DNA of 58,659 nucleotides, from sequence record DRR723986_7683. One strand, 5' to 3'. The notes below the pieces were generated by a model. It did no database searches. It saw only the letters and a list, made by a program, of their open reading frames with translations, and was not told the origin of the DNA. Made by a program: the position numbers and the translations under genes. Positions 3,030 to 50,963 of the stretch are shown here, in pieces. The stretch's first letter is position 1, and every line of letters starts with the position of its first letter.

Positions 3030-3057
3030 GATTTCCCATCCCATCGAATAACGATAC

Positions 3058-5278: not shown

Positions 5279-5340
5279 GTTTGATTTTGCAATGCATGCT
5301 ATTGAAACTAACTTGATCCCAAACCCAAATTGCGATACAA

Positions 5341-6114: not shown

Positions 6115-8037
6115 ATGCTGAATCGGGCTACAGAAATCCTACATCAAGTATTTGGACATGCTGATTTTCGGCCGGTTCAGAAAGAAATTATCGAGTCAGT
6201 TCTGACTGGAAAGGACACCCTTGCGCTTTTGCCAACAGGAGGAGGAAAGTCACTTTGCTATCAGATTCCAGCGCTGACGCAGGATGGAATTTGCCTTGTT
6301 GTGAGTCCGCTAATAGCCTTAATGAAAGATCAGGTGGATGGGTTAAAGGCGAAAGGGATTAAGGCAGCAGCGATTTATTCTGGGATGAGTTATCGGGAGA
6401 TTGACCGTACACTGGATAATTGCATCTATGGAGACTACAAATTCCTATACGTATCTCCCGAACGATTGAAGGCGGAACTCTTTGTGGAGCGTTTTCGGCA
6501 AATGAAAATCAATCTGATCGCAGTGGATGAGGCACATTGTATTTCCCAATGGGGGTATGATTTCCGTCCGCCATATTTGGAGATTGCTCTGATACGACCT
6601 TATCACCCGAAAGTCCCGGTTTTGGCACTGACAGCTTCGGCTACTCCGCAGGTTTGTGCCGATATCATGGAGAAGCTGGAGATGAAAAAGCCGGCAGAAT
6701 TCCATCAAAGTTTTGCCAGGAAAAACCTTAGTTACTCGGTTCGCCTAGTAGAAAACAAACTAGAAAAAGGGCTGGAAATACTCAGTAGGATTGAAGGGAC
6801 TGCGATCTGGTATGTGAGAAATAGACAAGGGACACATCAAATTGCGAAGGCATTGAGCCAATTAGGGATCTCTGCTTTAGCTTATCATGCTGGCTTGTCC
6901 ATGCTGGATCGTGCGAAGCGTCAAGAAGCTTGGATGAAAAATGAAGTTCGGGTGATGGTCAGTACCAATGCATTTGGGATGGGGATTGACAAGCCAGATG
7001 TCCGGGTGGTTATTCATAGCGATTTGCCGGAAAATGTAGAGAATTACTACCAGGAAGCTGGCAGGGCAGGTCGAGATGAAGCGAAAGCATATGGGGTTTT
7101 ACTTGTCAATAATCAGGATTTCGAGACTATACTCAAACGTGCTGCCTTGGTTTATCCTTCACTGGATTTTGTAAAAAGGGTTTACCAGTGCCTTGCTAAT
7201 TATTACCGGATTGCTGTTGGTAGCAATATGCTGAGCAGTTATGATTTTGAGTGGAGTGAGTTTGCGAATACCTATGAACTGGGGGTTTTGGAGACTTTTT
7301 ATGCACTGAAATTATTGGAAGAGGAAGGTTTTATAGGTTTGAGTGAAAGCTATTATTCTCCCTCTAAAATTCATTTCACAGTGGATCCATCCCGCTTGTA
7401 TGAGATTCAGATTGCTTACGCAAAGCTGGATCCTGTGGTAAAAATCATCATGCGAACCTACGGTGGGAATGTCTTTTCCGAATACATCAAAATCCAGGAA
7501 GCTAAACTTGCCAAGTCACTGAATCTTTATGAAAGTGAGGTGATCAAATCACTGAAGCAATTGGAGCAATTGGAGGTGATGGTGTATGATCAGCGCAAGG
7601 ATAAGCCTCAGATTACCTTTTTGACGCCACGTTATGACGCCGGGAAATTGCCGCTAAATTTCAAACGAATAGAACTTCGAAGAGCATTGACTTTGGAAAA
7701 GGCTAAAAGCATGGTTGCGTATGGTCAGCAAAATGAACTTTGTCGGACACAATTCATTCAAGAATACTTTGGTGAAAGCACAGATCATGAATGCGGAGTG
7801 TGTGATGTTTGCATCGCAAACCGTAAGGCAAATGACCCGTTAAAGGCTGAGAATAAGCTTAAAAATAAAATTCTGGAAACTTTAAGCAGCACTGGCGAGT
7901 TGTCTGAGAAGGAGATCTTTGAACGTATTAGGCTTCCTGCCTCTCAAAAAAATCTTCGTGTATTGCGCATTTTGCAGGATCAGGGATATATTACACAAGC
8001 GAGGTCTGGCAACTATGTAATTTCAACTCATGAGTAA
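6115..8037 (+). CDS. recQ: RecQ family ATP-dependent DNA helicase
   Basis: LPTGGGKSLCYQ, VDEAHCISQWGYDFRP, TNAFGMGIDK, QEAGRAGRD, C-terminal Zn site CR...CGVCDVC; no HRDC domain evident. Confidence 0.93.
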   Translation: MLNRATEILHQVFGHADFRPVQKEIIESVLTGKDTLALLPTGGGKSLCYQIPALTQDGICLVVSPLIALMKDQVDGLKAKGIKAAAIYSGMSYREIDRTLDNCIYGDYKFLYVSPERLKAELFVERFRQMKINLIAVDEAHCISQWGYDFRPPYLEIALIRPYHPKVPVLALTASATPQVCADIMEKLEMKKPAEFHQSFARKNLSYSVRLVENKLEKGLEILSRIEGTAIWYVRNRQGTHQIAKALSQLGISALAYHAGLSMLDRAKRQEAWMKNEVRVMVSTNAFGMGIDKPDVRVVIHSDLPENVENYYQEAGRAGRDEAKAYGVLLVNNQDFETILKRAALVYPSLDFVKRVYQCLANYYRIAVGSNMLSSYDFEWSEFANTYELGVLETFYALKLLEEEGFIGLSESYYSPSKIHFTVDPSRLYEIQIAYAKLDPVVKIIMRTYGGNVFSEYIKIQEAKLAKSLNLYESEVIKSLKQLEQLEVMVYDQRKDKPQITFLTPRYDAGKLPLNFKRIELRRALTLEKAKSMVAYGQQNELCRTQFIQEYFGESTDHECGVCDVCIANRKANDPLKAENKLKNKILETLSSTGELSEKEIFERIRLPASQKNLRVLRILQDQGYITQARSGNYVISTHE

Positions 8038-8632
8038 TTTTCTTGACGATTTATTCAACAAAGTATTTAAGTCTTCGGAAAGGACTCCTATGACGCACAA
8101 GGAAAATATTGTGCACAAGGAGTTGGAGATCGAAGATGCGAGAAAATGGATGGACTCTAATGAAGGTAAAGAGTTGATCGCCAGGATTGCCAAGTCGTAT
8201 CATTTCAAAACTATCCAGATCGAAGAGCGCCCGCAGATTCATATTTTGGATTCTAAGTACGCTAGAGGTTTTGCCATAACTTATGATGATCCATTAGATG
8301 AGCAAACATTTTCCTTGCTTTTCTTGGCTTTTGCGCAGCGTGTTCTAGCTTTGGGATATAGGCAAGTGAGTTTGGATAGGAAAATGGAAGAAATAAACGA
8401 GCAGGTGAAAATCACTGATAAGTATTATTTCAAACCTCCGCTCAAAGCACTTGGCAAGAATGAGTTGATTTCTCAGTTATTTGGCAATATTGCTATAGAG
8501 AAAATCACCGTAAATAACCAGCCCAATTACCTCAAGGTGCTAGCGACGTTTTATTCGGATAGGCTATACCAGGATCCAGAACCTTTCGATCAATTTCTTG
8601 ATCACATATTTGAAGCAACAAATGATGGATAG
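8030..8632 (+). CDS. Hypothetical protein
   Basis: 200 aa ORF overlapping both neighbours in an operon; no motif recognised. Confidence 0.7.
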   Translation: MSNFLDDLFNKVFKSSERTPMTHKENIVHKELEIEDARKWMDSNEGKELIARIAKSYHFKTIQIEERPQIHILDSKYARGFAITYDDPLDEQTFSLLFLAFAQRVLALGYRQVSLDRKMEEINEQVKITDKYYFKPPLKALGKNELISQLFGNIAIEKITVNNQPNYLKVLATFYSDRLYQDPEPFDQFLDHIFEATNDG

Positions 8633-9176
8633 AATTACATTAAAAGAGCAACTAGGCAGATATCGGACACCATATGAGGAAGAGGCGAGTTTTATTCAAT
8701 GTTTTTTGGATTTGACGGAAGATCCGCTTGCTTATGAAAGAGCCCGCTTGGAAGGCCATTTCACAGCTTCTGCTTGGATAGTGAACCGCAAGCGTACGCA
8801 TACTTTGCTTACACTTCACCGCAAACTCGGCAGATGGCTTCAGCTAGGTGGGCATGCGGATGGAAATGAGGATTTATTGGAAGTAGCCATGAAGGAAGCT
8901 GAGGAGGAAAGTGGATTGAAGAGTCTGGAGTTTGTGGACAAAACGATTTTTGACTTGGATAAGCATATTATTCCAGAACGTCCACATGTACCTGAGCATT
9001 TTCACTACGATGTGCGCTATATTTTGGAGGCAGACTTATATGAGCCATTGATTAAAAGCGATGAGAGTATTTCTTTGGCTTGGGTAGCATTTGATTCAGT
9101 TCAGGATGTGATCGGTTACAATCCTTCTATTCTACGAATGCTTGAGAAAACCAGTAAATCAGAAATTCTTCTTTGA
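8622..9176 (+). CDS. NUDIX hydrolase
   Basis: GHFTASAW, 'HRKLGRWLQLGGHADG...AMKEAEEESGL' Nudix box; likely start ATG at 8622 or 8625. Confidence 0.9.
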   Translation: MMDRITLKEQLGRYRTPYEEEASFIQCFLDLTEDPLAYERARLEGHFTASAWIVNRKRTHTLLTLHRKLGRWLQLGGHADGNEDLLEVAMKEAEEESGLKSLEFVDKTIFDLDKHIIPERPHVPEHFHYDVRYILEADLYEPLIKSDESISLAWVAFDSVQDVIGYNPSILRMLEKTSKSEILL

Positions 9177-9613
9177 TGATTAAGTTTGACCCTGCGCAGT
9201 TAGAGCGCGAGATCACATTTTCCTTACCTATTCAGATTAGATTCTCAGATATTGACGGCTACATGCATGTCAATAATGGGATATATTTCAATTACTTCGA
9301 ACATGCCAGAGCGGTTTTCTTGGAGCAGGTTTGTCAATGGGATATTATGAAAGTAGGCTGTGTGGTCGGCCGAATTGAAATGGATTATTTCCGGCCTATT
9401 CATGTAGATGATACCCTCAAAGCCTTGGTGAAATGCAGTAGAATTGGAAATTCCTCCTTTGATTTAGAGCAATATTTGGTGGGAGAAACGAAGACTGGAG
9501 AGCATTATACATTTGCAAAAAGTAAATGCATACTGGTCTCTGTAGATATGAAATCGATGAAGCCCATGCCGCTTCCAGAAAACTATAGGGCAAAACTTCA
9601 GTCCAATTCCTGA
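9173..9613 (+). CDS. Acyl-CoA thioesterase (4HBT/YbgC family)
   Basis: 'IRFSDIDGYMHVNNGIYFNYFEHAR' hot-dog fold motif. Confidence 0.9.
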   Translation: MMIKFDPAQLEREITFSLPIQIRFSDIDGYMHVNNGIYFNYFEHARAVFLEQVCQWDIMKVGCVVGRIEMDYFRPIHVDDTLKALVKCSRIGNSSFDLEQYLVGETKTGEHYTFAKSKCILVSVDMKSMKPMPLPENYRAKLQSNS

Positions 9614-9654
9614 TTTCAAAGACGCAATCCTTATCTTTGCGCAAAATTTAAGCC

Positions 9655-10368
9655 GTGAAAAAACTTTGGATAATTACCTTGCTATTGGCAGGATTGATGG
9701 GCTGTAGCCCAAGTGAAGAGGAATTGGTACAAGAAGGAATCCTTCAAATGGATGCTCAAAATTGGAGTGGAGCAATTACGCTTTTTGACCGAGCGCTTGA
9801 GATCAATCCGGAAAATGCACTGGCCCTGAATGCAAAAGGAGCAGCACTTTTTCAGGAAGAAAAATTTGAAGAAGCAGTTCCTGTTTTTACAGCTTCAATT
9901 CAGGCGGATTCCGCTAGCTATAAGGCATGGTTCAACCGTGGAAATGCCAATTTGAAACTGGAGAACTTTAAAAATGCAGTGTCTGATTACAACATGGCTA
10001 CTTTGCTTGATCCATCTCAAACAGATATTTACTACAACCGTGGACTGGCTTTGTTAGGCTTGGAGGAATACGAAGATGCACTACTCGATTTTGACCAAGC
10101 ACTTAAAGTAGAGCCAAACCAAGCACTTGTTCACTTCAATCGTGGAAAAGCACTTTTAGGAAATAATGATCCAGGAAATGCAATGAAAGCCTTAACTGAT
10201 GCGATCAATTTGGATGGGAAAAATGGCGCTGCCTATTACTTACTTGGCGTGACAAGAATGTCCGCGTTGGGAGAATCTGAAAAAGAAGAAGGATGTGCAG
10301 ATCTTAAGATGGCTCTTCAACTTGGATACACTGAAGCTAAAACTTGGATAGACGATTTCTGCGAATAA
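9655..10368 (+). CDS. TPR-repeat lipoprotein
   Basis: Lipobox 'LMGC'; repeated 'A..NRG.A...L..Y..A..DF..A' TPR units; GTG start; TATCTTTG -7 box at 9632-9639. Confidence 0.85.
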   Translation: MKKLWIITLLLAGLMGCSPSEEELVQEGILQMDAQNWSGAITLFDRALEINPENALALNAKGAALFQEEKFEEAVPVFTASIQADSASYKAWFNRGNANLKLENFKNAVSDYNMATLLDPSQTDIYYNRGLALLGLEEYEDALLDFDQALKVEPNQALVHFNRGKALLGNNDPGNAMKALTDAINLDGKNGAAYYLLGVTRMSALGESEKEEGCADLKMALQLGYTEAKTWIDDFCE

Positions 10369-10369
10369 G

Positions 10370-11335
10370 ATGGCAGTAATTGGGCAGGACATATCGCAAG
10401 CAAAAAGAGTCCTTGATGCGGGTGAGTTAGTTGCTATTCCTACCGAGACCGTTTATGGTTTGGCAGGAAATGCGCTGAATCCGGTGGCAGTAGCATCGAT
10501 TTTTGAGAAGAAAAACCGCCCAAGTTTTGACCCCTTAATTGTTCATATTCCTTCTCTTGACGTAGCAGAGAACTATGTAATTGACATTCCTGATCCGCTC
10601 CGAAAACTTGCCGAGCAATTCTGGCCAGGTCCTTTGACTTTGCTTCTCCCGAGAAAAAATACTATTCCTGACATAGTTACTTCAGGTTTGGAACGAGTTG
10701 CAATTCGTGTACCTGATCATTCCTTGACTTTAGAATTACTCTCTCAGTTAGATTTCCCTCTAGCTGCGCCAAGTGCAAACCCTTTTGGATACATTAGTCC
10801 TACTTCCCCACAGCACGTGGATGCTCAGTTGGGAGAAAGGATTTCTTATATTTTGGATGGAGGAAAATGCAGGGTAGGCTTGGAGAGTACTATAGTAGGA
10901 ATGGAAGAAAACGAAATTGTGGTTTATCGGCTTGGGGGGTTAGAAATTTCGGAAATTGAACGTATTGTGGGGGAAGTGACTGTGAAAAGTCATAGCTCCT
11001 CCAATCCTCAGTCTCCTGGTCTTTTAGAGAGCCACTACGCACCTACGAAGCCTTTTATATTAGGTAACCTGGAAGAATTGATTGCTGAGCGCAAAAGGCA
11101 GGGAATTGACTTTGCGGTACTTTCTCTAGCTCAAGTCTTTCCTGCTATTCCAAGTGGAAGCCAAATTGCTCTAAGTACCAAAGGAGATTTGAAAGAGGCG
11201 GCTACGAATCTCTTTGCTGCGATGCGAACGTTGGATGCGTCCAATGCTACCGTGATTTTGGCAGAATTGATGCCTGAGGAAGGTTTGGGAAAAGCCATAA
11301 ATGACCGCCTGAAGCGGGCTGCAACGAAAGGATAA
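10370..11335 (+). CDS. sua5: L-threonylcarbamoyladenylate synthase (Sua5)
   Basis: PTETVYGLA, KNRPSFDPLIVH, FWPGPLT, AAPSAN, C-terminal SUA5 domain (PGLLESHYAP...DRLKRAA). Confidence 0.93.
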   Translation: MAVIGQDISQAKRVLDAGELVAIPTETVYGLAGNALNPVAVASIFEKKNRPSFDPLIVHIPSLDVAENYVIDIPDPLRKLAEQFWPGPLTLLLPRKNTIPDIVTSGLERVAIRVPDHSLTLELLSQLDFPLAAPSANPFGYISPTSPQHVDAQLGERISYILDGGKCRVGLESTIVGMEENEIVVYRLGGLEISEIERIVGEVTVKSHSSSNPQSPGLLESHYAPTKPFILGNLEELIAERKRQGIDFAVLSLAQVFPAIPSGSQIALSTKGDLKEAATNLFAAMRTLDASNATVILAELMPEEGLGKAINDRLKRAATKG

Positions 11336-11457
11336 AATTTCTTTCCGATACTTCTTCGCAAATTGATCACAGGGGAAAGTCGATTTTTGCCGTAATCTTT
11401 GATAAATTCACACCTGATTTTTATCTATTTAATTAATCAAAAGCTATTAACCTTACT

Positions 11458-12657
11458 ATGAACTCTAGAATCAAAAATGTAGATAATCTTAGTTTTGAAG
11501 GCAAGAAAGCGCTCGTGAGAGTGGATTTCAATGTTCCTTTGGACGACCAACTGAATGTAACTGACGATACCCGTATTCAAGCTGCACTTCCAACGATCAA
11601 TAAAATATTGAAGGATGGCGGATCTGTGATCTTGATGTCTCACTTGGGCAGACCAAAATCGGGACCTGAGGATAAATTCTCTTTAAAGCACATCGTAGTT
11701 GCTTTGGAAAAAGCATTGGACAGAAAAGTAAAATTTGCCCAGGACTGCATAGGCCAAGAGCCGGAAATGCTTGCAGAAGGTTTGAAGCCTGGCGAAGTTT
11801 TGCTTTTGGAAAACCTAAGGTTCCATAAGGAAGAAGAAAAAGGGGATAAGGATTTTGCTGAGAAGCTTTCCAGACTTGGCGATGTCTATGTGAATGATGC
11901 GTTCGGTACAGCACATAGAGCGCATGCATCTACGGCGGTTATTGCTCAATTCTTCAATGATAAAGTTTGTGGATACTTAATGCTTTCTGAGTTGAAAAAT
12001 GCAGACAAAGTATTGGGCAATCCTGAAAGACCATACACCGCGATCATGGGTGGAGCGAAAATCGCTGACAAGATTTTGATCATCGAGCAATTGCTGAACA
12101 AAGTAGATAACCTGATCATCGGTGGTGGTATGTCCTATACTTTTGCCAAAGCACAAGGTGGAACAATCGGTGATTCTTTGCTTGAAGCTGATAAAATGGA
12201 TTTCGTTCTTGAGCTAATGGAAACAGCAAAAGCAAAAGGGGTTAATCTTATCCTTCCGGTTGATACAGTGATTTCTAAAGCTTTTGCAAATGATGCTGAG
12301 CAGGGAATGGCTAACAAAGGCGAAATTCCTGATGGATGGATGGGCTTGGATATAGGACCAAAATCCCGTGAATTGTTCTCTGAAGTAATCGCAAATTCAA
12401 AGACTATCCTTTGGAATGGTCCAATGGGCGTTTTTGAAATGGATTCGTTTGACAAAGGAACAAAGGCTGTCGCTGAGGCGGTAGTAGCTGCGACAAAAGC
12501 TGGCGCTTATTCCCTAATCGGTGGAGGTGACTCTGCAGCTGCGGTTAATAAGTTTGGATATGGAGATGATGTGTCCTTTGTATCTACTGGTGGTGGAGCA
12601 TTGCTAGAGCATATGGAAGGCAAAGTGCTTCCAGGTGTTGCGGCTTTGGAGCCTTAA
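11458..12657 (+). CDS. pgk: Phosphoglycerate kinase
   Basis: [47 protein letters not shown]. Confidence 0.98.
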
Positions 12658-19116: not shown

Positions 19117-19554
19117 TTACAACCCAGCAAAACCGGTTTGCTCAAGATTTTCTTTGGACAGGAATTTAGCTTTTTCCTCAGGACTAGCCAGTCTACAGGT
19201 GTTTTTCTTGCCAAACCACCGATACCGGTTTGCTCCAATCCAATCGTAGATAGGGTCCCGAAGAAATTTGGGTATTAAAATAAGAGCATACAAAGCCGGC
19301 CAGAGTCCAGAGAGGTTTCTTGCGATTTTAAGCGCAGCAGTACTTTTGTAATAGATTTCCCCCTTTTCTAAAAGCACAATTGAGTCTAAATAATGTTCTC
19401 GAACCTCAAATTTGGAAAGTATTTGCCTACTCAAATCCTCCTGCAGTGCTCCTACCAAGAAGTGATCTTTATTATCGCGTTGGATTACAAAATCAATGGA
19501 AGTATTACATAAGTTGCATACTCCATCAAAGAAGATGATGGATTTGGCTGACAT
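19117..19554 (-). CDS. DCC family thiol-disulfide oxidoreductase
   Basis: FDGVCNLC motif, 'Y.KS.AAL', 'IGANRYRWFG'. Confidence 0.9.
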   Translation of the reverse strand: MSAKSIIFFDGVCNLCNTSIDFVIQRDNKDHFLVGALQEDLSRQILSKFEVREHYLDSIVLLEKGEIYYKSTAALKIARNLSGLWPALYALILIPKFLRDPIYDWIGANRYRWFGKKNTCRLASPEEKAKFLSKENLEQTGFAGL

Positions 19555-22346
19555 TATCGAAGAAGTTGAATCGTTCCTTTTAGAGTCTGCTCTTTTTTCG
19601 CAGGATCGAGAACGTCAAAAACTACATTGCCTGAATAATAATAGGTTCCAGCCGGCAACTCATTTCCATTTTTATCTGTGCCATCCCATCTGATATAAAT
19701 ATCATTTTCATTGCTTTCCAAGCTATTATAGGAGAAAACTTCCACGCCCCAGCGATTGACTATCAAAATATCAACTCCCAAAACAAACCGTGGACATTGC
19801 GTAAATGGATTGTCAAAAGCCATGAATGTTTCATTAAATCCATCTCCATTTGGAGTAAAGGCATTTGGTAGATTATAGCTTGGGCAGTTGTCTACGCAGA
19901 CTATATTGCTAGGCTCAGATTCATTTCCTGATCGATCTACAGCAGTGATGTAATAACATCCTCTATAGTTCGGTAGATTAGAAATAGTAGTTACTAGGTC
20001 TAAAGAAGATAATTCTGCCACTAATTCAAATTGACCAGATTCTCCGTCAGGCGTAAAGTAAAGTTTATACCCGCTCAGCTCATCATCACAATCTCCTGTG
20101 AAATCAGGAGCCCAGCTTAAATCATGCTTATAGGTAGCATTATTGCAAGGGACTTCTGCGAGGTATTCAGTGCATTCAGGTCCTTCGAAAGTTAATACCG
20201 GTGGACATGGAAGGCGATTATCATCAGGCTTAGCACATGCTATTTGAGATTTGTTTTCAAGAGGATATACTAGTCCGGCTACATTATACGATCCTTTAGT
20301 AATAACGTAATAGCAGTATTCCAATTCTTTCTGAAGCGGAATTCCGTTGAAGCTACCATCATCTAAATAGCTGAAACCTTCAGATGTCACATCCACATCA
20401 GCTATTTTCACAAAAGTAGCATCATCCGCAGCCGCTGCATCTGTTCGATTTCTATATACCTCATGTCTGTACTCGCTCACAGCATTGTTCCAAGGGACAG
20501 TGAATTCCCAATTAACTTCAATTGCCTCATTGATTATGGTCAAATCCGTCCAAACGGATGAAGCTTTAGAAGAGGTGTCAATTTTGGTGTTTCTATCCAG
20601 AAGAACTACCTCGTAATTGTAAACCAGGTTTTGGGTATTTAATCCTGTATCGGTGAATAGCGTATCCGATGTAATTCCCAAAGAGACTTGTCCTGCATCT
20701 CCTGTGAATCCTGTGCTTCGCAAAAGCTCGTAACTATATGGCCCCGGGAATTGTACTTTGTCTATGTCATACGGAGGGGTCCATTTTACAAATATCTCGC
20801 CAGCAGTAGGGTCAGTTTCTTCTACACTGACATTTGTGATGATAGGTACATCCACATCGATTGTGACGCAAATCTCATCTGAGACTATGCTTTCGCCCAG
20901 CCTAGGTTCTGGGTAGGCTGCTACTAATCTATAGCAATAGGTGTTTCCAGGTGCCAAACCTTCTCCGCCGTTGGTATCAAGGAAGTCTAGCGTTTGCATC
21001 GTGGTAGTGCCTATTAGTTCATAGCCCGCTCTTATCCCAGTTTCACAGCTATCTGGCAAATAAGGGTCAGAGTTTATCCTTCTCCAAATCTGCATCTCGT
21101 TGGCTGAGTTGGCACAGGCGTAAGGGTCCCAGTTCAACTCTACTTCTCTACCAGGCATTTGTTCTATTTCATCAAAAACTGGAGGCGGACCGACCACTTT
21201 GATACGCCACGTTTTAATGTCTACTAAGGCTGGACCAGAACTAGGATCGTCCGTGATTCTTACACGGACTTCATATTCCCTTGCTCGCACATGATTACAG
21301 ACAGTTTGCCAGTCGAAATTAACTACTCCGGGAGTAGGCTGGAATTCACTCTCTGGGGAGTAAATCGCTGGAGAGGTGGTTATTTCTATAGGCTCTCCGA
21401 AGACTTCAATTTTGATTGGATCTCCATCAGGATCTTGGCCTTGAATAATTTCTTCTATTTTGGTCCCAGCTACCACGCACAGGTCGGGAGGTAAAATCAA
21501 CTCAGGTCTTCTATTATTTGAGTTTTCGATGATGATCTGCATATCCCGTACTACACTTCCGATAAGCTCAAATTTTCCGTTGAGCTTTCTATATTCGTTA
21601 ATCCTAAATGCCACATTAAATTGTCCCGCGGTACCAGGAGCGTCCCAAATCAAATCTCCCGTTATTGGATCTAATCTTAAAAATGCTGGGGTAGTGCCAT
21701 CTTCTTGATTGAAGCTGAACTCTGGAGAAGCTGGGCTTCTGTAGTTGTTAACTGGACGCTGAAATGCTTGCTTTGGAATATCCATTACATAAGCCAAGCT
21801 ATCTCCATCTGGATCGTAAGCACCTGGATTGTGGATGTATCTCACATTCACTGCTCCATTATCCACTGGAGGAATTGTCAAAACAGGAGAATTATTTACC
21901 CCAATAAAGGGATCAATGGTGATGGTAGTTTCCACATAAAAAGGCGTATCCACCGAGTTATCCATATTTAATGTTTTGTCATTTCGGTTGAATTCCTGAA
22001 ATCGAATGGTATAAGTTCCGGGACCTTGGAAGGTATGTGTTATTATAAATTCATTTTTTTCAATTTGATTCCCTAATGGCGTTACAATAGATATATCACT
22101 TTCCGTGTTTAATTCAGTGACTCTCCCATCTCCAAAATCAATTTCTCCAGGCCCAAAGATCACATTAGATCGAGTATCGGTGTATCCAACTACTGTGATT
22201 TTATAAGTTAAATTTTGAACAGACACCCGCTCAGCAATGATTTCTCCAGCTCTAATGTGTGTTGCCCAAGCTTCAGAAATTCCCGCAATTAGGAAGAGTA
22301 AAAAAAGTCCAAGGGTGATTTTCAGCTTCATAATGGTCAAGTTCAT
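19554..22346 (-). CDS. T9SS type-B cargo (gliding motility-associated C-terminal domain) protein with Fn3/Ig-like domains
   Basis: Signal peptide then 'ATHIRAGEI'; DPDGDSL motifs; Fn3-like 'YCY..'; C-terminal LPNAFTPNGDGFN...NRWG...WDG...GTYYY; alternative start 22331. Confidence 0.88.
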   Translation of the reverse strand: MNLTIMKLKITLGLFLLFLIAGISEAWATHIRAGEIIAERVSVQNLTYKITVVGYTDTRSNVIFGPGEIDFGDGRVTELNTESDISIVTPLGNQIEKNEFIITHTFQGPGTYTIRFQEFNRNDKTLNMDNSVDTPFYVETTITIDPFIGVNNSPVLTIPPVDNGAVNVRYIHNPGAYDPDGDSLAYVMDIPKQAFQRPVNNYRSPASPEFSFNQEDGTTPAFLRLDPITGDLIWDAPGTAGQFNVAFRINEYRKLNGKFELIGSVVRDMQIIIENSNNRRPELILPPDLCVVAGTKIEEIIQGQDPDGDPIKIEVFGEPIEITTSPAIYSPESEFQPTPGVVNFDWQTVCNHVRAREYEVRVRITDDPSSGPALVDIKTWRIKVVGPPPVFDEIEQMPGREVELNWDPYACANSANEMQIWRRINSDPYLPDSCETGIRAGYELIGTTTMQTLDFLDTNGGEGLAPGNTYCYRLVAAYPEPRLGESIVSDEICVTIDVDVPIITNVSVEETDPTAGEIFVKWTPPYDIDKVQFPGPYSYELLRSTGFTGDAGQVSLGITSDTLFTDTGLNTQNLVYNYEVVLLDRNTKIDTSSKASSVWTDLTIINEAIEVNWEFTVPWNNAVSEYRHEVYRNRTDAAAADDATFVKIADVDVTSEGFSYLDDGSFNGIPLQKELEYCYYVITKGSYNVAGLVYPLENKSQIACAKPDDNRLPCPPVLTFEGPECTEYLAEVPCNNATYKHDLSWAPDFTGDCDDELSGYKLYFTPDGESGQFELVAELSSLDLVTTISNLPNYRGCYYITAVDRSGNESEPSNIVCVDNCPSYNLPNAFTPNGDGFNETFMAFDNPFTQCPRFVLGVDILIVNRWGVEVFSYNSLESNENDIYIRWDGTDKNGNELPAGTYYYSGNVVFDVLDPAKKEQTLKGTIQLLR

Positions 22347-25290: not shown

Positions 25291-26040
25291 ATGAAACTGA
25301 CATTAAAAATATGGAGACAGAAAAACGCCAGCGATAAAGGCGGTTTTGTCACCTATCCTATAGCTGGAATTTCCACTGACATGTCATTCCTAGAGATGAT
25401 GGATGTCTTGAATGAGGAACTTGCTATCAAAGGAGAAGATCCAGTGCACTTTGACCACGATTGCCGTGAAGGTATCTGTGGTATGTGCTCTTTATATATC
25501 AATGGCCACCCACATGGGCCGAAGCAGACGACTACCTGTCAGCTTCACATGCGTTCGTTCTCTGATGGAGACACCATCACGATCGAACCTTGGAGAGCTG
25601 CGGCTTTCCCGGTAGTGAAGGATTTGGTGGTGGACCGTGGTTCTTTCGATAGAATCATCCAGGCGGGAGGCTATGTGTCCGTGAACACCGGTGGTGTTCC
25701 TGATGCGAACGAGATTCCTATTCCAAAGAGGATTGCGGATGAGGCTTTCGATTCTGCTACTTGTATTGGTTGTGGAGCTTGTGTGGCAGCCTGTAAGAAT
25801 GCTTCTGCGATGCTCTTTACCTCTGCCAAAATCTCTCAGCTGGCAATGCTTCCTCAAGGTCAGGTGGAACGTATGTCCAGAGCAGAGAAGATGGTCGCTC
25901 AGATGGATGAGGAAGGTTTCGGAGCTTGTACTAATACTGGTGCTTGCGAAGCAGAATGTCCTAAGGGAATCAGCCTAACGAATATTGCTCGAATGAACAG
26001 AGAGTATTTTTCTGCTTCTATGAAGAGCGAGAATGTATAA
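25291..26040 (+). CDS. sdhB: Succinate dehydrogenase/fumarate reductase iron-sulfur subunit
   Basis: [32 protein letters not shown] Fe-S motifs. Confidence 0.97.
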
Positions 26041-26091
26041 TTGAATTACAAATTCATAAAGAATGAAAGAGCCGGCGAGAGTCGGCTTTTT
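25998..26091 (+). repeat. Direct repeat copy 1 (sdhB 3' end plus terminator)
   Basis: Aligns with 28491-28585 at roughly 80% identity by manual alignment. Confidence 0.85.
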
Positions 26092-26093
26092 TT
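26066..26093 (+). terminator. Intrinsic terminator of the sdh operon
   Basis: AAAGAGCCGGC-GAGA-GTCGGCTTTTTTT hairpin with T tract. Confidence 0.85.
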
Positions 26094-26245
26094 GGTTTTT
26101 GGGGTGATGCAGGGAGGCGTTGTATATTTCTTTTCTATATTTAACTAAAGGAATTATATCATTAGTAGATATCTTTCCAAATAAGCATGATATCACTAAT
26201 AGGGTATAAACATACGTTGTAGGCAATTTTAACACGAGACAGAAA

Positions 26246-27694
26246 ATGACAGAAATACCGAAAATATTCATTTCATATAGTTGGACAACACCACAACACG
26301 AAGACTGGGTTATCAACCTTGCAGAGAAACTTGTTTCTGATGGGGTTGACGTAATTATTGACAAGTGGAACTTAAAAGAAGGGCATGACAAATACAATTT
26401 TATGGAGACGATGGTTAAATCGTCGGACATTCAGAAAGTGCTTATAATTCTTGATAAAAAATATTCAGAAAAGGCAGAAAAAAGAGCAGGTGGTGTTGGG
26501 ACAGAAACTCAAATAATAAGTCCGAAAATATACGGTGACGTTTCTCAAGAAAAATTCATTCCTATTGTTGCTGAAAAAGATGAAAACGAAAATGCTTTTG
26601 TCCCAACATTCTTAGAAAGTAGAATTTACATTGACCTATCAGATGACGATAAATTTGAAGAGAACTACGAAAGCCTATTAAGAAATATTTATCAAAGACC
26701 TGCATATAGCAAGCCTAAAATTGGAAAAGCCCCAAGTTATCTTTTTGAAGATACACCAATGACTCATAAAACTTCAAACATTGTTAGAAGTTTTGACAAT
26801 CAAATATCCAAATCACCTAAAAGAGTAAATGCAATAATTCGAGAATTTTTGGACGACTTTTTCGATGATTTGAAAGGTTACTCTGTTGACCTTAATGGAA
26901 CAAGAGATATTATACTTTTTGGAAAAGCAATCCACGATAATATAAATTCATACACACCACTCCGAAACGATTATATTATATTTCTGGACAAACTTTTCAA
27001 GAGCGAACTTGAATTTGACATTGATATTTTCATAAAATTTTTTGAAAGGTTACCAATACTCAAAGACCCACAAGACGGTAGAAGTAGTTGGACACAAAGC
27101 GAATTTGACAACTTTAGATTTTTCATTCACGAGATATTTGTTTACACTATTGCAGTGGGTTTAAAAAATGAAAAGTACAAGTTCATTGAAGAAATTTTGT
27201 ATTCAGGGTATTTCTTTCAAGGACGATTTGATTATAAAAAAGATGCCCAAAGATTTGATGAACTATACAATTATGTTGAGATATTTGACCAATACTATAA
27301 ACAAACTTATTCCAAAGATTATTTCAGCCCAATGGCAGATTTGATTGTAAAACGCTTACCTGATAATTTGACCTTAGACGACATAGTAAATGCTGACTTG
27401 CTTATTCATTACATCGCATCTTTTGAAAATATTAGGTGGTTCCCTATAACATATGTTTATAGAACAAGAGATAACGGTAAATTTGAGCTATTTCACCGAC
27501 TTGTTTCATTAAGACATTTTGAGAAAGTAAAAGTTCTTTTCAATGTAAATACAGTTAAAGAGTTACAAGAAAAAATAGCGGATTTTCAAACGACAGACAA
27601 AAATCCAAATGGGAATGGGTATTCACGTTCATTTGACAGGGTTATACCTATTCACAAACTTATTGAAAGTGACAAAATAGGAACAATTCGATAG
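26246..27694 (+). CDS. SEFIR/TIR-domain protein, putative anti-phage defence
   Basis: N-terminal 'PKIFISYSW...H..WV..LA..L...GVDV..DKW.L..G.D...FME', 'YSEKA..RAGGVGTE' SEFIR/TIR signature; long helical C-terminus; spot GC counts 27-33% versus 55% in an sdhB line. Confidence 0.85.
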   Translation: MTEIPKIFISYSWTTPQHEDWVINLAEKLVSDGVDVIIDKWNLKEGHDKYNFMETMVKSSDIQKVLIILDKKYSEKAEKRAGGVGTETQIISPKIYGDVSQEKFIPIVAEKDENENAFVPTFLESRIYIDLSDDDKFEENYESLLRNIYQRPAYSKPKIGKAPSYLFEDTPMTHKTSNIVRSFDNQISKSPKRVNAIIREFLDDFFDDLKGYSVDLNGTRDIILFGKAIHDNINSYTPLRNDYIIFLDKLFKSELEFDIDIFIKFFERLPILKDPQDGRSSWTQSEFDNFRFFIHEIFVYTIAVGLKNEKYKFIEEILYSGYFFQGRFDYKKDAQRFDELYNYVEIFDQYYKQTYSKDYFSPMADLIVKRLPDNLTLDDIVNADLLIHYIASFENIRWFPITYVYRTRDNGKFELFHRLVSLRHFEKVKVLFNVNTVKELQEKIADFQTTDKNPNGNGYSRSFDRVIPIHKLIESDKIGTIR

Positions 27695-27700
27695 AAAAAC

Positions 27701-27835
27701 TGCCTACAACAGGCGTTTGGCACAATGGCGGGTGTAGTGGTTAATTGAACATTCTGCCTCGCATTAGTATTTGTGGTATATTGACAGTTTTGTGATACGA
27801 AATCCGCCACTACGCCAACCTGAATCCCATTAACG
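27701..27835 (+). repeat. attC-like imperfect inverted repeat
   Basis: TGCCTACAAC start; CAGG/CCTG, TTGGC/GCCAA and TGGCGG/CCGCCA nested arms with bulges; ends with ATTAACG where a GTT core would be expected. Confidence 0.6.
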
Positions 27836-27889
27836 CAATTTTCCAAACTTCCAATCCGCACTAAAATCATCTGAATACTCACCTTTACC

Positions 27890-28483
27890 ATGCACCCATC
27901 CAATTTACTTCAACAAGTAGCTTTCATCAAAGAAATAGACAAGCTGAAATACATTCAGCGCAAGACGCGATTATTCAACAGCGATAGACAGGAAAATGAT
28001 GCTGAGCATAGTTGGCATTTGGCGATGATGACCATTGTACTGGCTGAGCATTCGGACAAGCCAATTGATGTGCTGAAGGTGGTGAAAATGGTGCTAATCC
28101 ACGACATCGTGGAGATCGATGCTGGCGATACGTTTATCTATGATTCCACAAAGAATCATACCAATACTGAAGAAGAACTTCTTGCCGCAAAACGGATTTT
28201 TGGACTTTTACCAAAGGAGCAGGCCGAGGAATTTATAGCGGTTTGGGAAGAGTTTGAAGCAGGTGAATCTGATGAAGCGAAATTTGCGAAGTCTATGGAC
28301 AGATTTGAGCCGTTGCTACAAAACACCTCAAATAATGGTGGGACTTGGGCGGAATTTGATGTTCCTTATCAAAAAGTTTACGATAAGAAAAAAGCTATCA
28401 AAAATGGTTCTACATCTATTTGGAACTATGCAGAGAACTTGATTAACGAAAGTGTGGAGAAGGGGATTCTGAAAAAGGGATAA
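27890..28483 (+). CDS. HD domain phosphohydrolase (HD_3 / YfbR-like)
   Basis: 'IDKLK.IQR.T', 'ENDAEHSWHLA', 'LIHDIVEIDAGD', 'AKFAKSMDR'. Confidence 0.92.
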   Translation: MHPSNLLQQVAFIKEIDKLKYIQRKTRLFNSDRQENDAEHSWHLAMMTIVLAEHSDKPIDVLKVVKMVLIHDIVEIDAGDTFIYDSTKNHTNTEEELLAAKRIFGLLPKEQAEEFIAVWEEFEAGESDEAKFAKSMDRFEPLLQNTSNNGGTWAEFDVPYQKVYDKKKAIKNGSTSIWNYAENLINESVEKGILKKG

Positions 28484-28490
28484 GAATAGG

Positions 28491-28585
28491 CAGAGAGTAT
28501 TTCTTCTTTTCTGTAAAAAGAGAGAATGGATAATTTAATTACTAATTCATAAAGAAGATAAAAAGTCGGCAAGAGTCGGCTTTTT
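28491..28585 (+). repeat. Direct repeat copy 2: degenerate relic of the sdhB 3' end plus terminator
   Basis: Reads REYFFFSVKRENG* in the frame where sdhB reads [13 protein letters not shown], with the stop at the same offset; followed by an AAAAGTCGGC-AAGA-GTCGGCTTTTT hairpin. Confidence 0.85.
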
Positions 28586-28792
28586 CTATTTTCTGATTTT
28601 GAAGTTCTATTTTTTAACAATTCTCTACATGTCAATTGCTCTCTTTATAAATATTAGAATTATTCCAATTCAAATTTGCACTGAATGATCAAATTCAGCC
28701 TTAAAACCAATTAAAATTTTGAATGTGAGCCTTTATGCTTAACTTTGAAAAATTATATTTTAAGAAGATTTTGTCACAAATACAAATTAGAT

Positions 28793-30229
28793 ATGAGTTA
28801 TATAGATCTGGGGATCTTTGTCGCCTACATGCTGGCTATGCTGGGAGTGGGGTATTTTTACATGAAGAAGAACTCAGGTCAGGAGGATTACTATGTGGGC
28901 GGAAGGAATATCGGCCATTGGCATATCGGGCTTTCGGTTGTAGCGACTGACGTTGGCGGAGGTTTCTCCATTGGGCTTGGTGGCTTGGGATTTGTGATGG
29001 GAATGTCTGGTTCCTGGATGCTTTTTACAGGACTTTTGGGCGCTTGGCTCGCAGCAGTAGTATTGATTCCACGAGTAAAGTCCGACCCAGCATTTGCTAA
29101 GTTTTTTACCTTTCCACAGATCATCGGTCATCTATACAATTCCACCACCGCCAAAGTTGCAGCCGTAATCTGCTTTCTCGGATATCTTGGTTTTACTTCC
29201 TCACAATTATTGGCAGGTGCCAAGCTCGCTTCAGGAACTTTCGAAGAGCTTGATCTTTCCTATGCGCTTTTGATCATGGGTGCAGTTGCGGTTGTGTATA
29301 CCGTGATGGGTGGACTGAAGGCTGTTATTTATACCGATACGATACAATGGATAGTTTTGATGGCAGGTTTGATGTTTATCGGAATCCCTATTTCTTACAA
29401 TTATGTAGGAGGCTGGGATGGTATTCAGAGCACTTTGCCCCAGGAATTTTTCTCATTTACTAATTTGACTTGGCAGGATCTTGCGAATTGGGGAATTACG
29501 ATTATCCCGATTTGGTTTGTGGGTATGACGCTTTATCAGCGGATTTTTGCCGCGCGTGATGTAAAGTCTGCAAAGAAGGCTTGGTTTATCGCCGGACTAT
29601 TTGAATGGCCTATTATGGCACTTTTAGGGGTTTCTTTGGGTTTACTATCCAGAGTAGCCGTAGAGCAGGGTGCATTGGAGGGGTTTACCACCGCGATGGA
29701 TCCGGAAATGGGGCTTCCGGTTTTGCTGAGCCAGATCTTACCAGCTGGTATTTTAGGATTGATGATGTCAGCCTATTTTTCAGCAGTGCTTTCTACGGCA
29801 GATTCCTGTCTGATGGCAGCCTCGGGAAACCTGACTACCGACATTCTTGGAAAATATTACACTTCAAAATCTCTTAAAGAAGAGATGAAAATCTCTCAGT
29901 TGCTCACTTTGGCAATTGGAATAGTAGCAATTATTATTGCTTGGCAGATGACGGAAGTTTTGAGTTTGATGCTATATTCCTATGCTTTTATGGTTTCTGG
30001 GCTTTTAGTGCCGGTGCTGGCAGGTTTGTTTTTCAATCAGACCAGTGCAAAAGCAGCCACTGCATCTATGATTACGGGAGGTTCCTTGACTGCAGGTTTG
30101 ATTATAACCGAAGTGTCACTTCCTTTTGGCTTAGATGCCAATTTATTTGGGCTCACGCTCTCTTTGCTGACGTTTTTGTCAGTGATTTATTTCGAAAAAA
30201 ATAACAGTTCAAAGTTAAAATCTATATGA
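28793..30229 (+). CDS. Sodium:solute symporter family protein (PutP-like)
   Basis: 'DYYVGGR', 'ATDVGGG', 'YTVMGGLKAVIYTD.IQ', 'YQRIFAA', 'SAVLSTADS'; about 13 TM; ATG 28793 preferred over TTG 28745. Confidence 0.92.
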   Translation: MSYIDLGIFVAYMLAMLGVGYFYMKKNSGQEDYYVGGRNIGHWHIGLSVVATDVGGGFSIGLGGLGFVMGMSGSWMLFTGLLGAWLAAVVLIPRVKSDPAFAKFFTFPQIIGHLYNSTTAKVAAVICFLGYLGFTSSQLLAGAKLASGTFEELDLSYALLIMGAVAVVYTVMGGLKAVIYTDTIQWIVLMAGLMFIGIPISYNYVGGWDGIQSTLPQEFFSFTNLTWQDLANWGITIIPIWFVGMTLYQRIFAARDVKSAKKAWFIAGLFEWPIMALLGVSLGLLSRVAVEQGALEGFTTAMDPEMGLPVLLSQILPAGILGLMMSAYFSAVLSTADSCLMAASGNLTTDILGKYYTSKSLKEEMKISQLLTLAIGIVAIIIAWQMTEVLSLMLYSYAFMVSGLLVPVLAGLFFNQTSAKAATASMITGGSLTAGLIITEVSLPFGLDANLFGLTLSLLTFLSVIYFEKNNSSKLKSI

Positions 30230-46596: not shown

Positions 46597-49500
46597 CTAT
46601 TCTATGATGAGAATGGAGCCAAAATCCGATTTTGAAATCTTTTGTTGATAATTTTTAAAATTAATTCGTACAGCGTAATTCCCGTTTGGAATTGCTTTTC
46701 CATTGTATGTGCCGTCCCATGCACAAGTGGATTCTTCAGATATAAGGTTTGTTTGAGTGCACTCAAAAATTACTTGTCCCCATTTATTTACAATAACTAA
46801 GTCGAGTTCGTCGATTAGATAATTTGTGTAAATTAGAAATTGCTTATCTGGATTGTCAGGTTGTACAGCATTAGGATAAATGACCTTCAACTCACATTCT
46901 TCCTCGGTGATGAAGTCTGTCTGATATGCACACCCTTCAGCACTATACACAAGGAGCCTATAGTTTCCAATGGACTGTGGCTTATAAACCGAATTAGTGG
47001 ATACAAGTTGGTCCTCAAAATACCATTCATAGCTGGCAAAACTGCCAGGATTAATTGTAGGGCCGATATCATATTTTGGACAAACTTGATAGCTTTCTTC
47101 TACTTCCGGCCTGACGGTATCTGTGCTTCTTAATATCAAAACCTGGTCAAATCCCAAAATGCATGGAACATCGTTGTAAATACGCACTTCATAGGTGCCT
47201 TCCCGAATTGCTAAGATTTCTTCTTTGTTCCGTTCGCCTGCGAGCTCTATTTGCTCACCGGTCGGAAAGGTGTACCACCATTCTATGGAAGTCACCATAC
47301 TAAAGTCTGCCTCTGCTCTAATAGTTGCGGAAGGGGAATCAGGACAAAGAGGATCTGCCAAGAGCATTACATCTAAAGCCAGTACTGGAGGCAATACTTC
47401 AAAAGAAATAGGAGAAATATGGCAAGGGATTATATTTGATGGCTGCACTTCCAAAGAGTAGATCCCCGGACGATCTATCATGAAAAATTCATCTGTCCCA
47501 ACTTCATTTCCATTTTCGTCTAACCAAGAGATATCAACATCATCTATTGAATAATTACTAACTGATGCCTGAAAAATTTTTTTCCCATCACAAAATTCTT
47601 CAGACAGTATAGGTGTGAAATCGACAGTCTCAGCAAGAGTTACATTCATCTCTTTTTGCTCAGGACAAAAAGTTGTTGGGCTATTTCTGTCAAATGCTAG
47701 AAATATATAGACGCCTGCTTCATCAATTGTGAAAGATTGCCCAGAATTTTTTTCGATCACTGCACCTGAGGGCGTGGTAAGGAAAAATTCTAAATCTTGG
47801 TTGGTTTGGGGTACTAATTCGTAGTAGTCACAAATAGCGAGTACCTCAGGGATATCAAATTGTACTTTATCTGGAGTTAAGTCCAATTGAAAAGTTGTTC
47901 TGCCAAGCTCACAATTTTTATTGATTTCAGGTAGGATGCTATAAGCTGAAGCCTCGTAGGTGCCACCTATTCTTGTGGTGATGATGGTTTGATTATTGAA
48001 TTCAGGTAGTAGGACTATTTCACCGTCTTCATTAAATCGTCTCCACCTAATGTCTGTGACAGCTTCTGGAGAAGTGGTGATTAGCTCCACTCTTGCTTCT
48101 GGGCCGAATTCACATAATTTGGTCGTTACTATTGAAGCATCCACAAATAGAACGGGTTCATTAACAGTAAATTCCTTTGGGGATATAGGACAATTTTCGG
48201 AGTTTTTGGGTTGGACTTCTAACGAAAAAAGTCCGTTGGATGTAGGTGATAAAAATAGTGTTTGGCCAGTACCAATCGTGTCTCCATCCGAATTTCTCCA
48301 GAAGAACTCTGCTAAAGAGGGATCATAGCCATTGATGTCTGCTTCATAGACTCGGTTTCCAATCACACAATCTTCACTTTTGAGTTTTGGCTCAAATGCT
48401 ATAGGTTCTGTAGTACTTACAAATAGCTTTCGTTCAGATGGACAAATTTCACTTTGATCTGGAATTGTACCAATTACACTGTACTCACCTGCCTCTGTGA
48501 GGGTCAAAGGATCTCCAGCTTTTGCTGTGCTAATATTACCAGAAGGATCTGTCAGAGTAAAAAGAAGGATTTGTGAAGTTTCTGGAATTAACTCAAAAGA
48601 ACCACAAATCGTGAGGGAGTCTGGTATAGAAAAAGAAGTCTGGGGCTTGCTTGGAATCTCAATTAATTCCCTGGTAGGTAGGTTGCAGCTGTCCTTATCC
48701 AGAATTTCGAAGAAATATTTCCCTCCGCCAAGTTCTATTTTGAATGGGTTGGCAGTAGGTAAGGCTTCTTTTAATGCTACGTCGCCTTTTTCATTGATGA
48801 CACGAAATGAGCCTTCAATTATCCCGTTTTCGAGATTTACATCGAATGATCCGTTTATTTTTCCATTTGTAGTGCACGATTCTGCAGTGATATTTTCAAT
48901 TTCAAATTTTAAAACAGAAGGTGGATCATTCAGGGGAACTACAGCTCCCAAGGTGTTTTGGCAACCGTTAAGAAAGGAATATAAGGTGTAGCCTCCGGAT
49001 TTGAGATTATTGATAACAATAGTTTCCCCAGCTAGGAATGGGCCGTAGGTGGATCCTGAAGCACCAACTCTTACCAAGTCCAGGTTAGTTTCTGCGATAA
49101 GCTCCAACCCTCCATCAGGATTGAGACAGCCACTCGAACCTATGACTGAAGATACAGATATAGCAGGCTGCTCATTGTAATTGAATATACTGGTTGCCTG
49201 TGGAATACAGGATGGGTTGTTTTCGTTTTCAATGATAAGTTCAATACTATACTCTCCATAAGCCATTAAATCCTTTTCAGGCAAGAGGGTCACAGAAGAT
49301 GAATTCCCCAAATCAATGCGATTAGGCTCGCCTGGCATTTTCAAAAACCACCTTCCTATACTTATTGGGTCAGCAGTGAAAGTGATACTACCGTCTTTAC
49401 AAACTGTGGAGGCACTCTGTATTATAGAGATAGAATTTAAAACACTGACTTTGGTAGTAAGCGTATTGTTACACACAGGGTTTCCCTTATCATCAGGGAA

Positions 49501-50962: not shown

Positions 50963-50963
50963 A

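Follow-up and report, generated by a model that had tools for sequence, protein, structure and literature searches.

A probable integron-like gene cassette carrying a predicted bSEFIR defence gene in a Bacteroidota chromosome

Introduction

The locus described here raises the question of how a single predicted anti-phage gene comes to lie between integron-style core sequences when no integron is in view. It belongs to sequence record DRR723986_7683, a stretch of 58,659 nucleotides that was analysed as a whole and is referred to as the window; all coordinates are those of the window unless another locus is named. At 26216-27831 the window contains one open reading frame (ORF) matching the bSEFIR defence system, preceded by a short core sequence and followed by an imperfect palindrome that opens with AAC. 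Judging by the protein names of close relatives, the host would be a member of the genus Algoriphagus, order Cytophagales. A model working from the letters alone (the original prediction) had described the element as an integron-style cassette moved by an IntI-like or other tyrosine recombinase encoded elsewhere, and had suggested that it may belong to a Bacteroidota-specific system delivering defence genes singly around the genome. The conclusion reached here, with a probability of about 85%, is that 26216-27831 forms a single gene cassette, belonging to a site-specific recombination system that is integron-like and native to Bacteroidota.

Integrons are defined by the integrase IntI and its additional domain. 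This domain is thought to be necessary for the recombination of folded attC sites. An unpaired central spacer, extrahelical bases and a variable terminal structure are among the features of attC defined in PMC5027507. Classical integrons include CALIN and SALIN forms, SALIN being the label for single sites without an integrase (10.1101/2022.09.11.507474). Surveys that follow the IntI-based definition report almost no integrons in Bacteroidetes, at most one of them complete; the one complete integron named in the IntegronFinder 2.0 paper is in Salinibacter.

Structure of the cassette

The 5′ boundary of the cassette is an R′-type core site, GTTGTAGGCAATTTT (26216-26230, + strand), at which a G|TT crossover is presumed. 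An R″-type inverse core site, AAAACTGCCTACAAC (27696-27710, +), ends in AAC and is complementary to the first core at 14 of 15 positions. The sole mismatch falls at position 11, where the wider family of sites keeps an A/C mismatch. Between the two cores lies the cargo ORF (26246-27694, +; 482 aa), with its ATG 30 nt after the cassette start and its TAG stop at 27692-27694. Its product matches the PADLOC bSEFIR profile over residues 1-481 (2e-110, 368 bits). Residues 5-145 match Pfam SEFIR (69.3 bits, 5.5e-19) and TIR_2 (61.7 bits, 1.2e-16), in keeping with the SEFIR/TIR gene first named from the translation. The protein combines an N-terminal SEFIR domain that scores above TIR with the system profile match, as bSEFIR proteins do, and a function in anti-phage defence is predicted for it. 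A defence role and NAD+ depletion are described for bSEFIR in 10.1101/2022.05.11.491447 and 10.1101/2024.02.11.579819.

The inverse core leads into an attC-like recombination site of 124 nt (27708-27831, +), which extends from the AAC to an ATT triplet and is recognised by a covariance model, R1, and by covariation within its family. Its stems pair CAGG (27710) with CCTG (27819), TTGGC (27717) with GCCAA (27814) and TGGCGG (27726) with CCGCCA (27804). The AAC is intact and ATT takes the place of GTT, within a degenerate R′ core, ATTAACG (27829-27835, +); there is also one base fewer ahead of the motif in the right flank. Relatives have GTTRRRY-like cores at this point, and a 91%-identical copy in genome G304 has GTT. 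The coordinates, stems, 14/15 inverted pair and terminal ATTAACG of the original prediction are all exact to the base.

Model R1, run over the whole 58.6-kb window with filters off, finds one site at 124.1 bits, itself one of the 14 training sequences of the model, and all other matches have E ≥0.42. No Phage_integrase family was detected in 44 of the 45 ORFs of at least 80 aa, and tblastn of the window with three array-linked integrases of relatives returned nothing (best E 0.043), so that the claim of no integron in view stands. With one site beside a coding sequence and no second site or integrase nearby, the arrangement is of the SALIN type as judged with R1, the published definition of SALIN resting on IntegronFinder calls. 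A scan for sigma-70 promoters gave a chance-level result (13 found, 10.1 expected), from a model whose scope leaves out the promoters of Bacteroidota. An 83-aa ORF on the opposite strand (27652-27903, −) overlaps the entire site; it lay outside the profile scan and is probably spurious.

By themselves, the features of the window are not beyond chance. The fold-back originally proposed for the bottom strand is no more stable in the window stretch alone than in shuffled sequence: DNA folding of 27690-27845 against 200 dinucleotide shuffles gave z = -0.02 for the bottom strand and +0.26 for the top strand. A second 15-nt inverted pair of 93% identity (I7) is found in the same 2.3 kb as the cassette pair (I8). 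The core 10-mer, with one mismatch allowed, has four matches in the window against 2.56 expected, and 23 of 100 shuffles reach four. A third exact copy of the 10-mer (49554-49563, −) was taken as chance; it lies inside an ORF of 1166 aa and has no R1 match. Rfam, searched over 25500-28500, has no family at the site, and two weak snoRNA-model matches (E 0.12 and 0.4; 27980-28049) fall inside the neighbouring HD gene. The features gain significance only by comparison, which brings out a repeat family, covariation and a break in homology exactly at 26216.

A family of palindromic sites

When 41 related genomes were searched at the DNA level with 25291-28483, the segment 27708-27818 alone was matched at many separate places, both within the genus and in other families of the order. 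The nearest to the window of the genomes compared is designated G001. Seventeen aligned copies share one plan: a box closed by AAC, then a stem, a centre of ~70 nt that is conserved, a return stem, a 5-nt spacer and GTT. In 12 of these copies AAC and GTT span exactly 124 nt. When a 21-pair structure is laid on 14 full sites, 83.3% of cells are paired compared with 75.5 ± 1.2% in shuffled sequence, a value reached by none of 500 shuffles. Nine of the 21 pairs have changed on both sides, and partner columns slid out of register pair at only 28-40%. The pairing of the AAC and GTT boxes (a C-G pair) is kept in 12 of the 14 sites and in most further matches. As in attC sites, the palindrome of the family is kept by structure and not by sequence, which the window copy alone does not show.

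R1 is a narrow model built from the 14 full sites. It also recovered sites outside its training set: applied to the first 24 sources it gave 31 matches, exactly one of them in the window; 31 of the 41 related genomes have matches, and five genomes together hold 87 sites. The mean folding energy of 40 sites is -17.2 kcal/mol on the top strand and -18.0 kcal/mol on the bottom strand, compared with -11.9 kcal/mol when shuffled. Sites of the family are ~5-6 kcal/mol more stable than their shuffles, and the window's own site is not. Energies of the two strands are alike (Wilcoxon p 0.13, 40 sites). No terminator pattern is present on the + strand at the site.

Arrays, cargo and the cassette rule

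The sites of relatives form co-oriented arrays, mostly with one ORF between successive sites. Homologous sites recognised by R1 follow unrelated ORFs in many genomes, as expected of cassettes under the original prediction. In the five genomes with 87 sites, each has one recombinase-linked array, several recombinase-free arrays and many singletons, a grouping made by the author's reading. Among the array cargo are hydrolases, a PF00144 beta-lactamase-family protein, immunity proteins, a type IIG restriction-modification enzyme and an Hsp70-like/UvrD-like three-gene block. The idea that defence genes are delivered singly holds in that defence cargo and single sites both occur; it does not hold as a general description, since non-defence cargo and arrays are found too.

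Two loci illustrate the range of the cargo. At 894-11550 of locus L047 (G024:C76), a three-gene cassette of ~5.6 kb lies beside the recombinase and encodes an Hsp70-like protein, a UvrD-like helicase and a 554-aa protein; the next cassette, of ~4.9 kb, contains the type IIG restriction-modification enzyme and a 444-aa protein. At 9309-10760 of locus L049 (G014:C20), a cassette flanked by two sites consists of the PF00144 beta-lactamase-family (serine hydrolase) gene. The recombinase gene of the L049 array is frameshifted.

In an integron, the bases that follow G|TT of one attC site are the first of the next cassette, with whose inverse core they pair. This rule was applied to 18 adjacent site pairs in the retrieved loci, using the seven positions (4-10) after the GTT of one site and the bases before the AAC of the next. 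At least six of the seven positions are complementary in 10 of the 18 adjacent pairs, against 13 of 794 non-adjacent pairs (Fisher 1.4e-12). Of the 11 adjacent pairs matching at five or more of the seven positions, 10 show the position-11 mismatch (A vs C on the top strand). This provides a small hint of a folded bottom strand, because the mismatch is a G.T wobble on that strand. Four of five recombinase-linked arrays have a matching cassette start, at 11-14 of 15 positions, 42-249 nt after the stop codon of the recombinase gene, and the match in the fifth is only a 9-nt run. Crossover at G|TT is indicated alike by the adjacent-pair rule, the four integrase-side starts, the 14/15 match in the window and three copies of the cassette that start at 26214-26216.

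The recombinase linked to the arrays

Twenty-five integron-integrase-like loci were picked from a TIGR02249 search (those whose first-half piece scored 89 bits or more, together with two broken genes beside a site). By the author's reading of the matches, an R1 site lies within 6 kb downstream on the same strand in 12 of the 25, where the recombinase gene is co-oriented with the cassettes, and upstream on the other strand in two more, where it is divergent. Several of the remaining loci are at contig ends. The chance expectation for such adjacency is ~1%, because there is roughly one site per 250 kb. The tyrosine recombinase that had been placed elsewhere than in the window would have its counterpart directly upstream of site arrays in G001 and many relatives. 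A gene of this kind beside an insertion site and a cassette array was found in relatives and not in the window.

These proteins resemble IntI and Xer without matching either family closely. None of the 41 related genomes has a protein above the TIGR02249 cut-off (265 bits), and the matches to this model come in two pieces, at about positions 2-180 and 238-315. Two array-linked proteins searched against NCBIfam score 190-199 bits on TIGR02249 and 197-210 bits on NF040815 (XerA/integron; cut-off 220), IntI models being their best or second-best match; the XerD of one of the same genomes scores 135.5 bits on TIGR02249. The array-linked proteins are below all Xer cut-offs and are extra to the genome's own XerD. 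Their best solved-structure match is an archaeal XerC-like protein of XerA type, 4a8e, in one stretch (1.2e-37). The alignment to the integrase VchIntIA (2a3v) is split in two, with 24 residues in place of the 67 found in IntI. Twelve aligned members show no variation at the catalytic R, K, H-x-x-R, H and Y positions, and an extra N-terminal extension of ~90 residues is present. Source annotations call the proteins XerD, site-specific integrase or tyrosine-type recombinase, and their closest named relatives are from Algoriphagus and Cyclobacterium.

The additional domain specific to IntI lies around patch III, as defined in PMC9668308. The distance between the KxKDR and LRHSFA motifs was taken in 42 proteins: it is 58-68 residues in 32, 102 in eight true IntI, and unmeasurable in two. 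All Bacteroidota proteins of the array type have a spacing of 60-65 residues, and XerD has 68. The array-linked proteins have ~40 residues fewer than IntI between the motifs and do not carry the additional domain. In a maximum-likelihood tree the eight domain-bearing IntI form one clade on a long branch with 100/100 support. All of the Bacteroidota array-linked proteins fall outside this clade, in a poorly resolved bush that also holds proteins of other phyla and archaea, with the XerD pair apart. On these sequence comparisons, the recombinase family is classed as related to Xer and IntI, and not as IntI. This agrees with a Bacteroidota-specific system distinct from the classical integron, as the original prediction had suspected.

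A scan of contigs with the integrase alignment hit the motif common to all Xer and IntI and gave a mixed set. Among the matches listed were the eight true IntI used for comparison, and in 80 of the loci listed R1 gave only nine matches. R1 sites downstream of like recombinases, again among the matches listed, are in loci labelled Alkalitalea, Bacteroidales metagenome-assembled genome (MAG), Aquiflexum, Winogradskyella and Bacteroidetes MAG; at higher rank, the labels of loci with model matches beside the recombinase gene include Marinilabiliaceae, Bacteroidales and Flavobacteriaceae. In an Ignavibacteriota MAG (L076, 11110-20193), at least 10 repeats ending in GGCTAAC...GTTAGCC lie downstream of a like recombinase, with a motif spacing of 63 and without the IntI insertion. 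The eight true-IntI loci have no match to R1.

At one array-linked locus (L046, G036:C14; 3918-4286), a single-strand-binding protein (SSB) gene overlaps the start of the recombinase gene. The overlap is of interest because SSB controls the folding of the attC hairpin.

Distribution of the bSEFIR cassette

The cargo protein is present in 11 of 401 genomes of the order, in none of 11 genomes of the same genus (G001 included) and in none of 37 of the same family. G304 and G051, from two further families, have it at 94% and 83% identity. At the DNA level, homology to G304 covers 26216-27822 (91%) and homology to G051 covers 26216-27710 (79%). The upstream sequences of the window, G304 and G051 are unrelated, and the flanks are unlike in both comparisons. 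In G304 the site still ends in GTT, and a second cassette with its own site comes after it. In G051 the gene is broken.

The cassette is also represented in four metagenome runs, each from a different study, by contigs that differ from it at 35-37 positions over about 1500-1520 nt. Three long ones start at 26214-26216, and one of 3659 nt (run X5) is unlike the window on both sides; those of runs X1 and X4 extend into the body of the site. Many other contigs match the site only, behind different upstream sequence. The same SEFIR cassette therefore occurs in other contexts, in G304, G051 and the metagenome contigs, with homology that starts exactly at GTT, as a mobile cassette would have it. Two contigs of run X4 that join frdB to the symporter region were considered as an empty site and rejected as too weak, the sides being of 20-25 letters at 85% likeness.

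The chromosomal insertion

In the window the cassette lies within an insertion of about 2.4 kb between frdB and a symporter gene. The left neighbour, frdB/sdhB (25291-26040, +), encodes an iron-sulfur subunit (Pfam Fer2_3 and Fer4), is 93-95% identical in nucleotides to that of G001, and is followed by an intrinsic terminator of a 12-pair stem and a T run (26065-26092, +). Homology with G001 beyond frdB ends at 26103. The left flank of the cassette (26096-26215, +) is the only room for a promoter; it has no relative in any retrieved locus and no integrase remnant by tblastn. It shows a weak likeness to the attI-like sequence of G001, 16 of 24 positions by eye, and may be a decayed attI-like site.

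On the other side, homology with G001 (contig G001:C6) begins at 27835, directly after the last site of the G001 array. This conserved right flank (27835-27889, +) is the leader of the HD gene and holds a motif resembling a cassette start, GCAATTTT; in both genomes the last site abuts it at the same base. The HD-domain (YfbR-like) phosphohydrolase gene itself (27890-28483, +; Pfam HD_3, 4.2e-56) is part of the same insertion, and no + strand terminator separates it from the SEFIR gene. In G036 an intact HD gene is found at another locus (L015, 1400-1490 and 2076-2215), followed by an AAC...TTT palindrome-like stretch that was recognised by eye and has no R1 match. The HD gene may itself have been a cassette gene, because of GCAATTTT in its leader and the AAC...TTT stretch in G036.

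The insertion is bracketed by a direct repeat. Its left copy (25998-26091, +) is the 3′ end of frdB with the terminator, and its right copy (28491-28585, +) is a pseudo frdB 3′ end with a terminator copy at 28560-28585; the two are 83% identical over 96 aligned nt. Beyond it is the sodium:solute symporter gene (28745-30229, +; Pfam SSF), the neighbour of frdB at empty sites, which directly follows frdB in three of 19 frdB loci of the genus. The same repeat occurs in G001 and G025 with different contents between its copies. G001 has at least seven sites there, in an array spread over two contig ends. The start of this array (L030, 2545-2613) is a near-copy of the integrase-proximal attI-like sequence on another contig (L051, 1815-1925). 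The attI-like site is duplicated without the recombinase gene, because the near-copy includes the last codons of that gene.

The content of the same position in G025, another species (L029, G025:C4; 2479-5369), is a DUF4365/restriction-like defence gene and a SoFic defence gene, with no R1 sites. The hotspot would thus also be filled by a second, different mode of insertion, because this content lacks an R1 site. Both G025 genes are followed by a copy of ~110 nt of the first part of the HD gene. The wider surroundings of the cassette (19554-22346 and 46597-57648) are ordinary chromosome of 41% G+C with frdCAB and type IX secretion cargo and components (CHU_C, PorP/SprF). The window is neither plasmid nor phage.

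Proposed mechanism

The cassette would consist of a G|TT core, a 30-nt leader, the single bSEFIR gene and the attC-like palindrome of 124 nt. A tyrosine recombinase encoded elsewhere in the genome, for which the array-linked family provides the candidate enzyme, would recognise the site as a folded single strand and carry out strand exchange at its conserved triplet, most plausibly at G|TT. Excision would release the cassette as a circle, within which its first bases would pair with those preceding its AAC to give a stem of 10-15 bp. Re-entry would take place at the attI-like site beside the recombinase gene, at another site of the family or at secondary sites. The copy in the window is probably fixed, because it has ATT for GTT, one base fewer ahead of the flank and a fold no better than that of shuffled sequence.

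Alternative explanations

Several observations weigh against the integron-like cassette. The window's own site folds no better than shuffles and carries ATT for GTT, and there is no sign that this copy can still move. Next to the AAC/GTT box there is a 1 x 5 nt loop, whereas attC is described with a spacer that is roughly symmetrical. The cassette rule fails in eight of 18 adjacent pairs; in most of these the two sites are separated by over 1.3 kb, and further sites may have escaped detection between them. The recombinase family is tied to the sites by adjacency only. The G051 copy (L135/L149, G051:C14) and the X5 contig stop at AAC, without the 124-nt body, which a cassette model does not predict; loss of the hairpin is a guess at the cause. 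No excision junction or circle was found among the run contigs, which cannot show rare excision. The direct repeat of ~95 nt brackets the whole insert and points to a second, different integration event.

The idea that the inverted repeat arose by chance, or belongs to a repetitive extragenic palindromic (REP)-like element or terminator with no part in the movement of the gene, draws on the chance-level statistics of the single sequence and on the Rfam result for 25500-28500, where nothing beyond the two weak matches in the HD gene was returned. It is scarcely credible beside the exact coincidence of homology breaks with the boxes, seen in three genomes and four metagenomes, the cassette rule, the recombinase genes adjoining the sites and the lack of a + strand terminator pattern. 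An ordinary SALIN cassette moved by a classical IntI with the additional domain, encoded elsewhere or in a donor, has in its favour that AAC...GTT boxes, palindromic sites, the cassette rule and arrays are all integron features, and that isolated cassettes are common in genomes according to Loot et al. (10.1101/2022.09.11.507474). This explanation is very improbable given the recombinases themselves: no genome of the 41 passes the TIGR02249 cut-off, the examined array-linked proteins have 60-65 residues where eight true IntI have 102, VchIntIA aligns in two pieces (24 residues against 67), the proteins lie outside the fully supported IntI clade, and R1 finds nothing in the true-IntI loci. It is also improbable, if a little less so, that the mobile unit is just the gene between its 15-nt inverted repeats (GTT...AAC), with the 124-nt body a separate repeat. 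Homology confined to 26214/26216-27709/27710 in G051 and the 3659-nt X5 contig, unlike beyond, is what such a unit would leave. The G304 copy and the X1 and X4 contigs, however, run on into the body of the site, the body covaries with the boxes, and gene and body always alternate in arrays; the broken G051 gene fits decay after loss of the hairpin.

A more substantial competitor, though still an unlikely one, accepts the cassette as real and makes it a passenger, or a later exchange, in a larger block of left flank, cassette or cassettes and HD gene that integrated at the 3′ end of frdB and duplicated ~95 nt. The direct repeat with its terminator, its recurrence in G001 and G025 around other contents and the loci in which frdB directly precedes the symporter gene all suit this account, as does the opening of the G001 array with a copy of the integrase-proximal attI-like sequence. 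On the other side, the duplication must be old, because the repeat copies differ by ~17%, and later turnover is called for because the contents differ between close genomes. The last sites of the window and G001 abut the same flank at the same base, as cassette exchange at G|TT would leave them. The repeat points to an old integration at the frdB 3′ end, and the window cassette may not have arrived singly, because it sits inside an older variable insertion bounded by that repeat. An integron-like cassette native to Bacteroidota remains the preferred explanation for 26216-27831 itself, and the original prediction is supported, with reservations on its cargo, on arrays and on single arrival.

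Relation to known systems

The system resembles integrons in several respects. In most sites of the family AAC and GTT triplets end an imperfect palindrome, and the first bases of a cassette complement the bases before its own AAC. Cassettes are promoterless (putatively so here), mostly of a single ORF, co-oriented and placed beside a tyrosine recombinase gene and an insertion site. There are recombinase-free arrays and scattered single sites, and the cargo includes phage-defence genes. The sites appear to differ from integron attC in having a paired R stem of 10-15 bp with the conserved position-11 mismatch, an asymmetrical box loop, no clear extrahelical bases in the alignments and a centre of ~70 nt that is conserved across genera and not variable; the window copy differs further in its ATT.

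With IntI (TIGR02249; VchIntIA, 2a3v) the array-linked recombinases share the invariant catalytic positions and a gene beside an array of hairpin sites. Unlike IntI, they have no additional domain, score under the curated cut-offs, fall outside the clade and carry the N-terminal extension of ~90 residues. They are similar to XerA, XerC and XerD in their best structure match, 4a8e, and in catalytic-motif spacing (60 vs 68 residues). They are set apart from these by their presence in addition to the genome's own XerD, their place beside cassettes, their scores under the Xer cut-offs and a branch distinct from the XerD pair. The cargo is like the bSEFIR of Millman et al. in its whole-protein profile match and N-terminal SEFIR domain, and differs from described bSEFIR in lying on a mobile cassette in a Bacteroidota genome.

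Cassette logic, SALIN-type single sites and defence cargo are known features of integrons; the recombinase family, the geometry of the site and the host phylum are what differ. In the literature searched, which largely left out subscription journals as well as supplements, integron-like arrays in Algoriphagus, Cytophagales or Flavobacteriia were not found, and neither were descriptions of IntI-like enzymes without the additional domain. Such sites may be listed as CALIN or SALIN in the taxon tables of IntegronFinder surveys.

Significance

The window alone gives a modest yield: one probably fixed defence cassette in a variable hotspot. Comparison extends this to a cassette system with the hallmarks of integrons in most of the genomes searched within one order, with a recombinase that lacks the IntI domain in every case. 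The chances are about even that Bacteroidota, and at least one Ignavibacteriota genome, carry a second, undescribed integron lineage, with AAC...GTT hairpins of ~124 nt and Xer-like recombinases that never had, or have lost, the IntI domain. If this is true, the capture of cassettes through hairpins arose twice or predates IntI, and standard integron finders miss a main route of defence-gene traffic in Bacteroidota.

Confirmation would turn the handling of folded sites by an Xer-like enzyme into a testable question and would offer a new handle on the origin of integrons. Integron-finding software would then need new models. Confirmation would also account for the passage of individual defence genes, bSEFIR among them, from one family of Bacteroidota to another.

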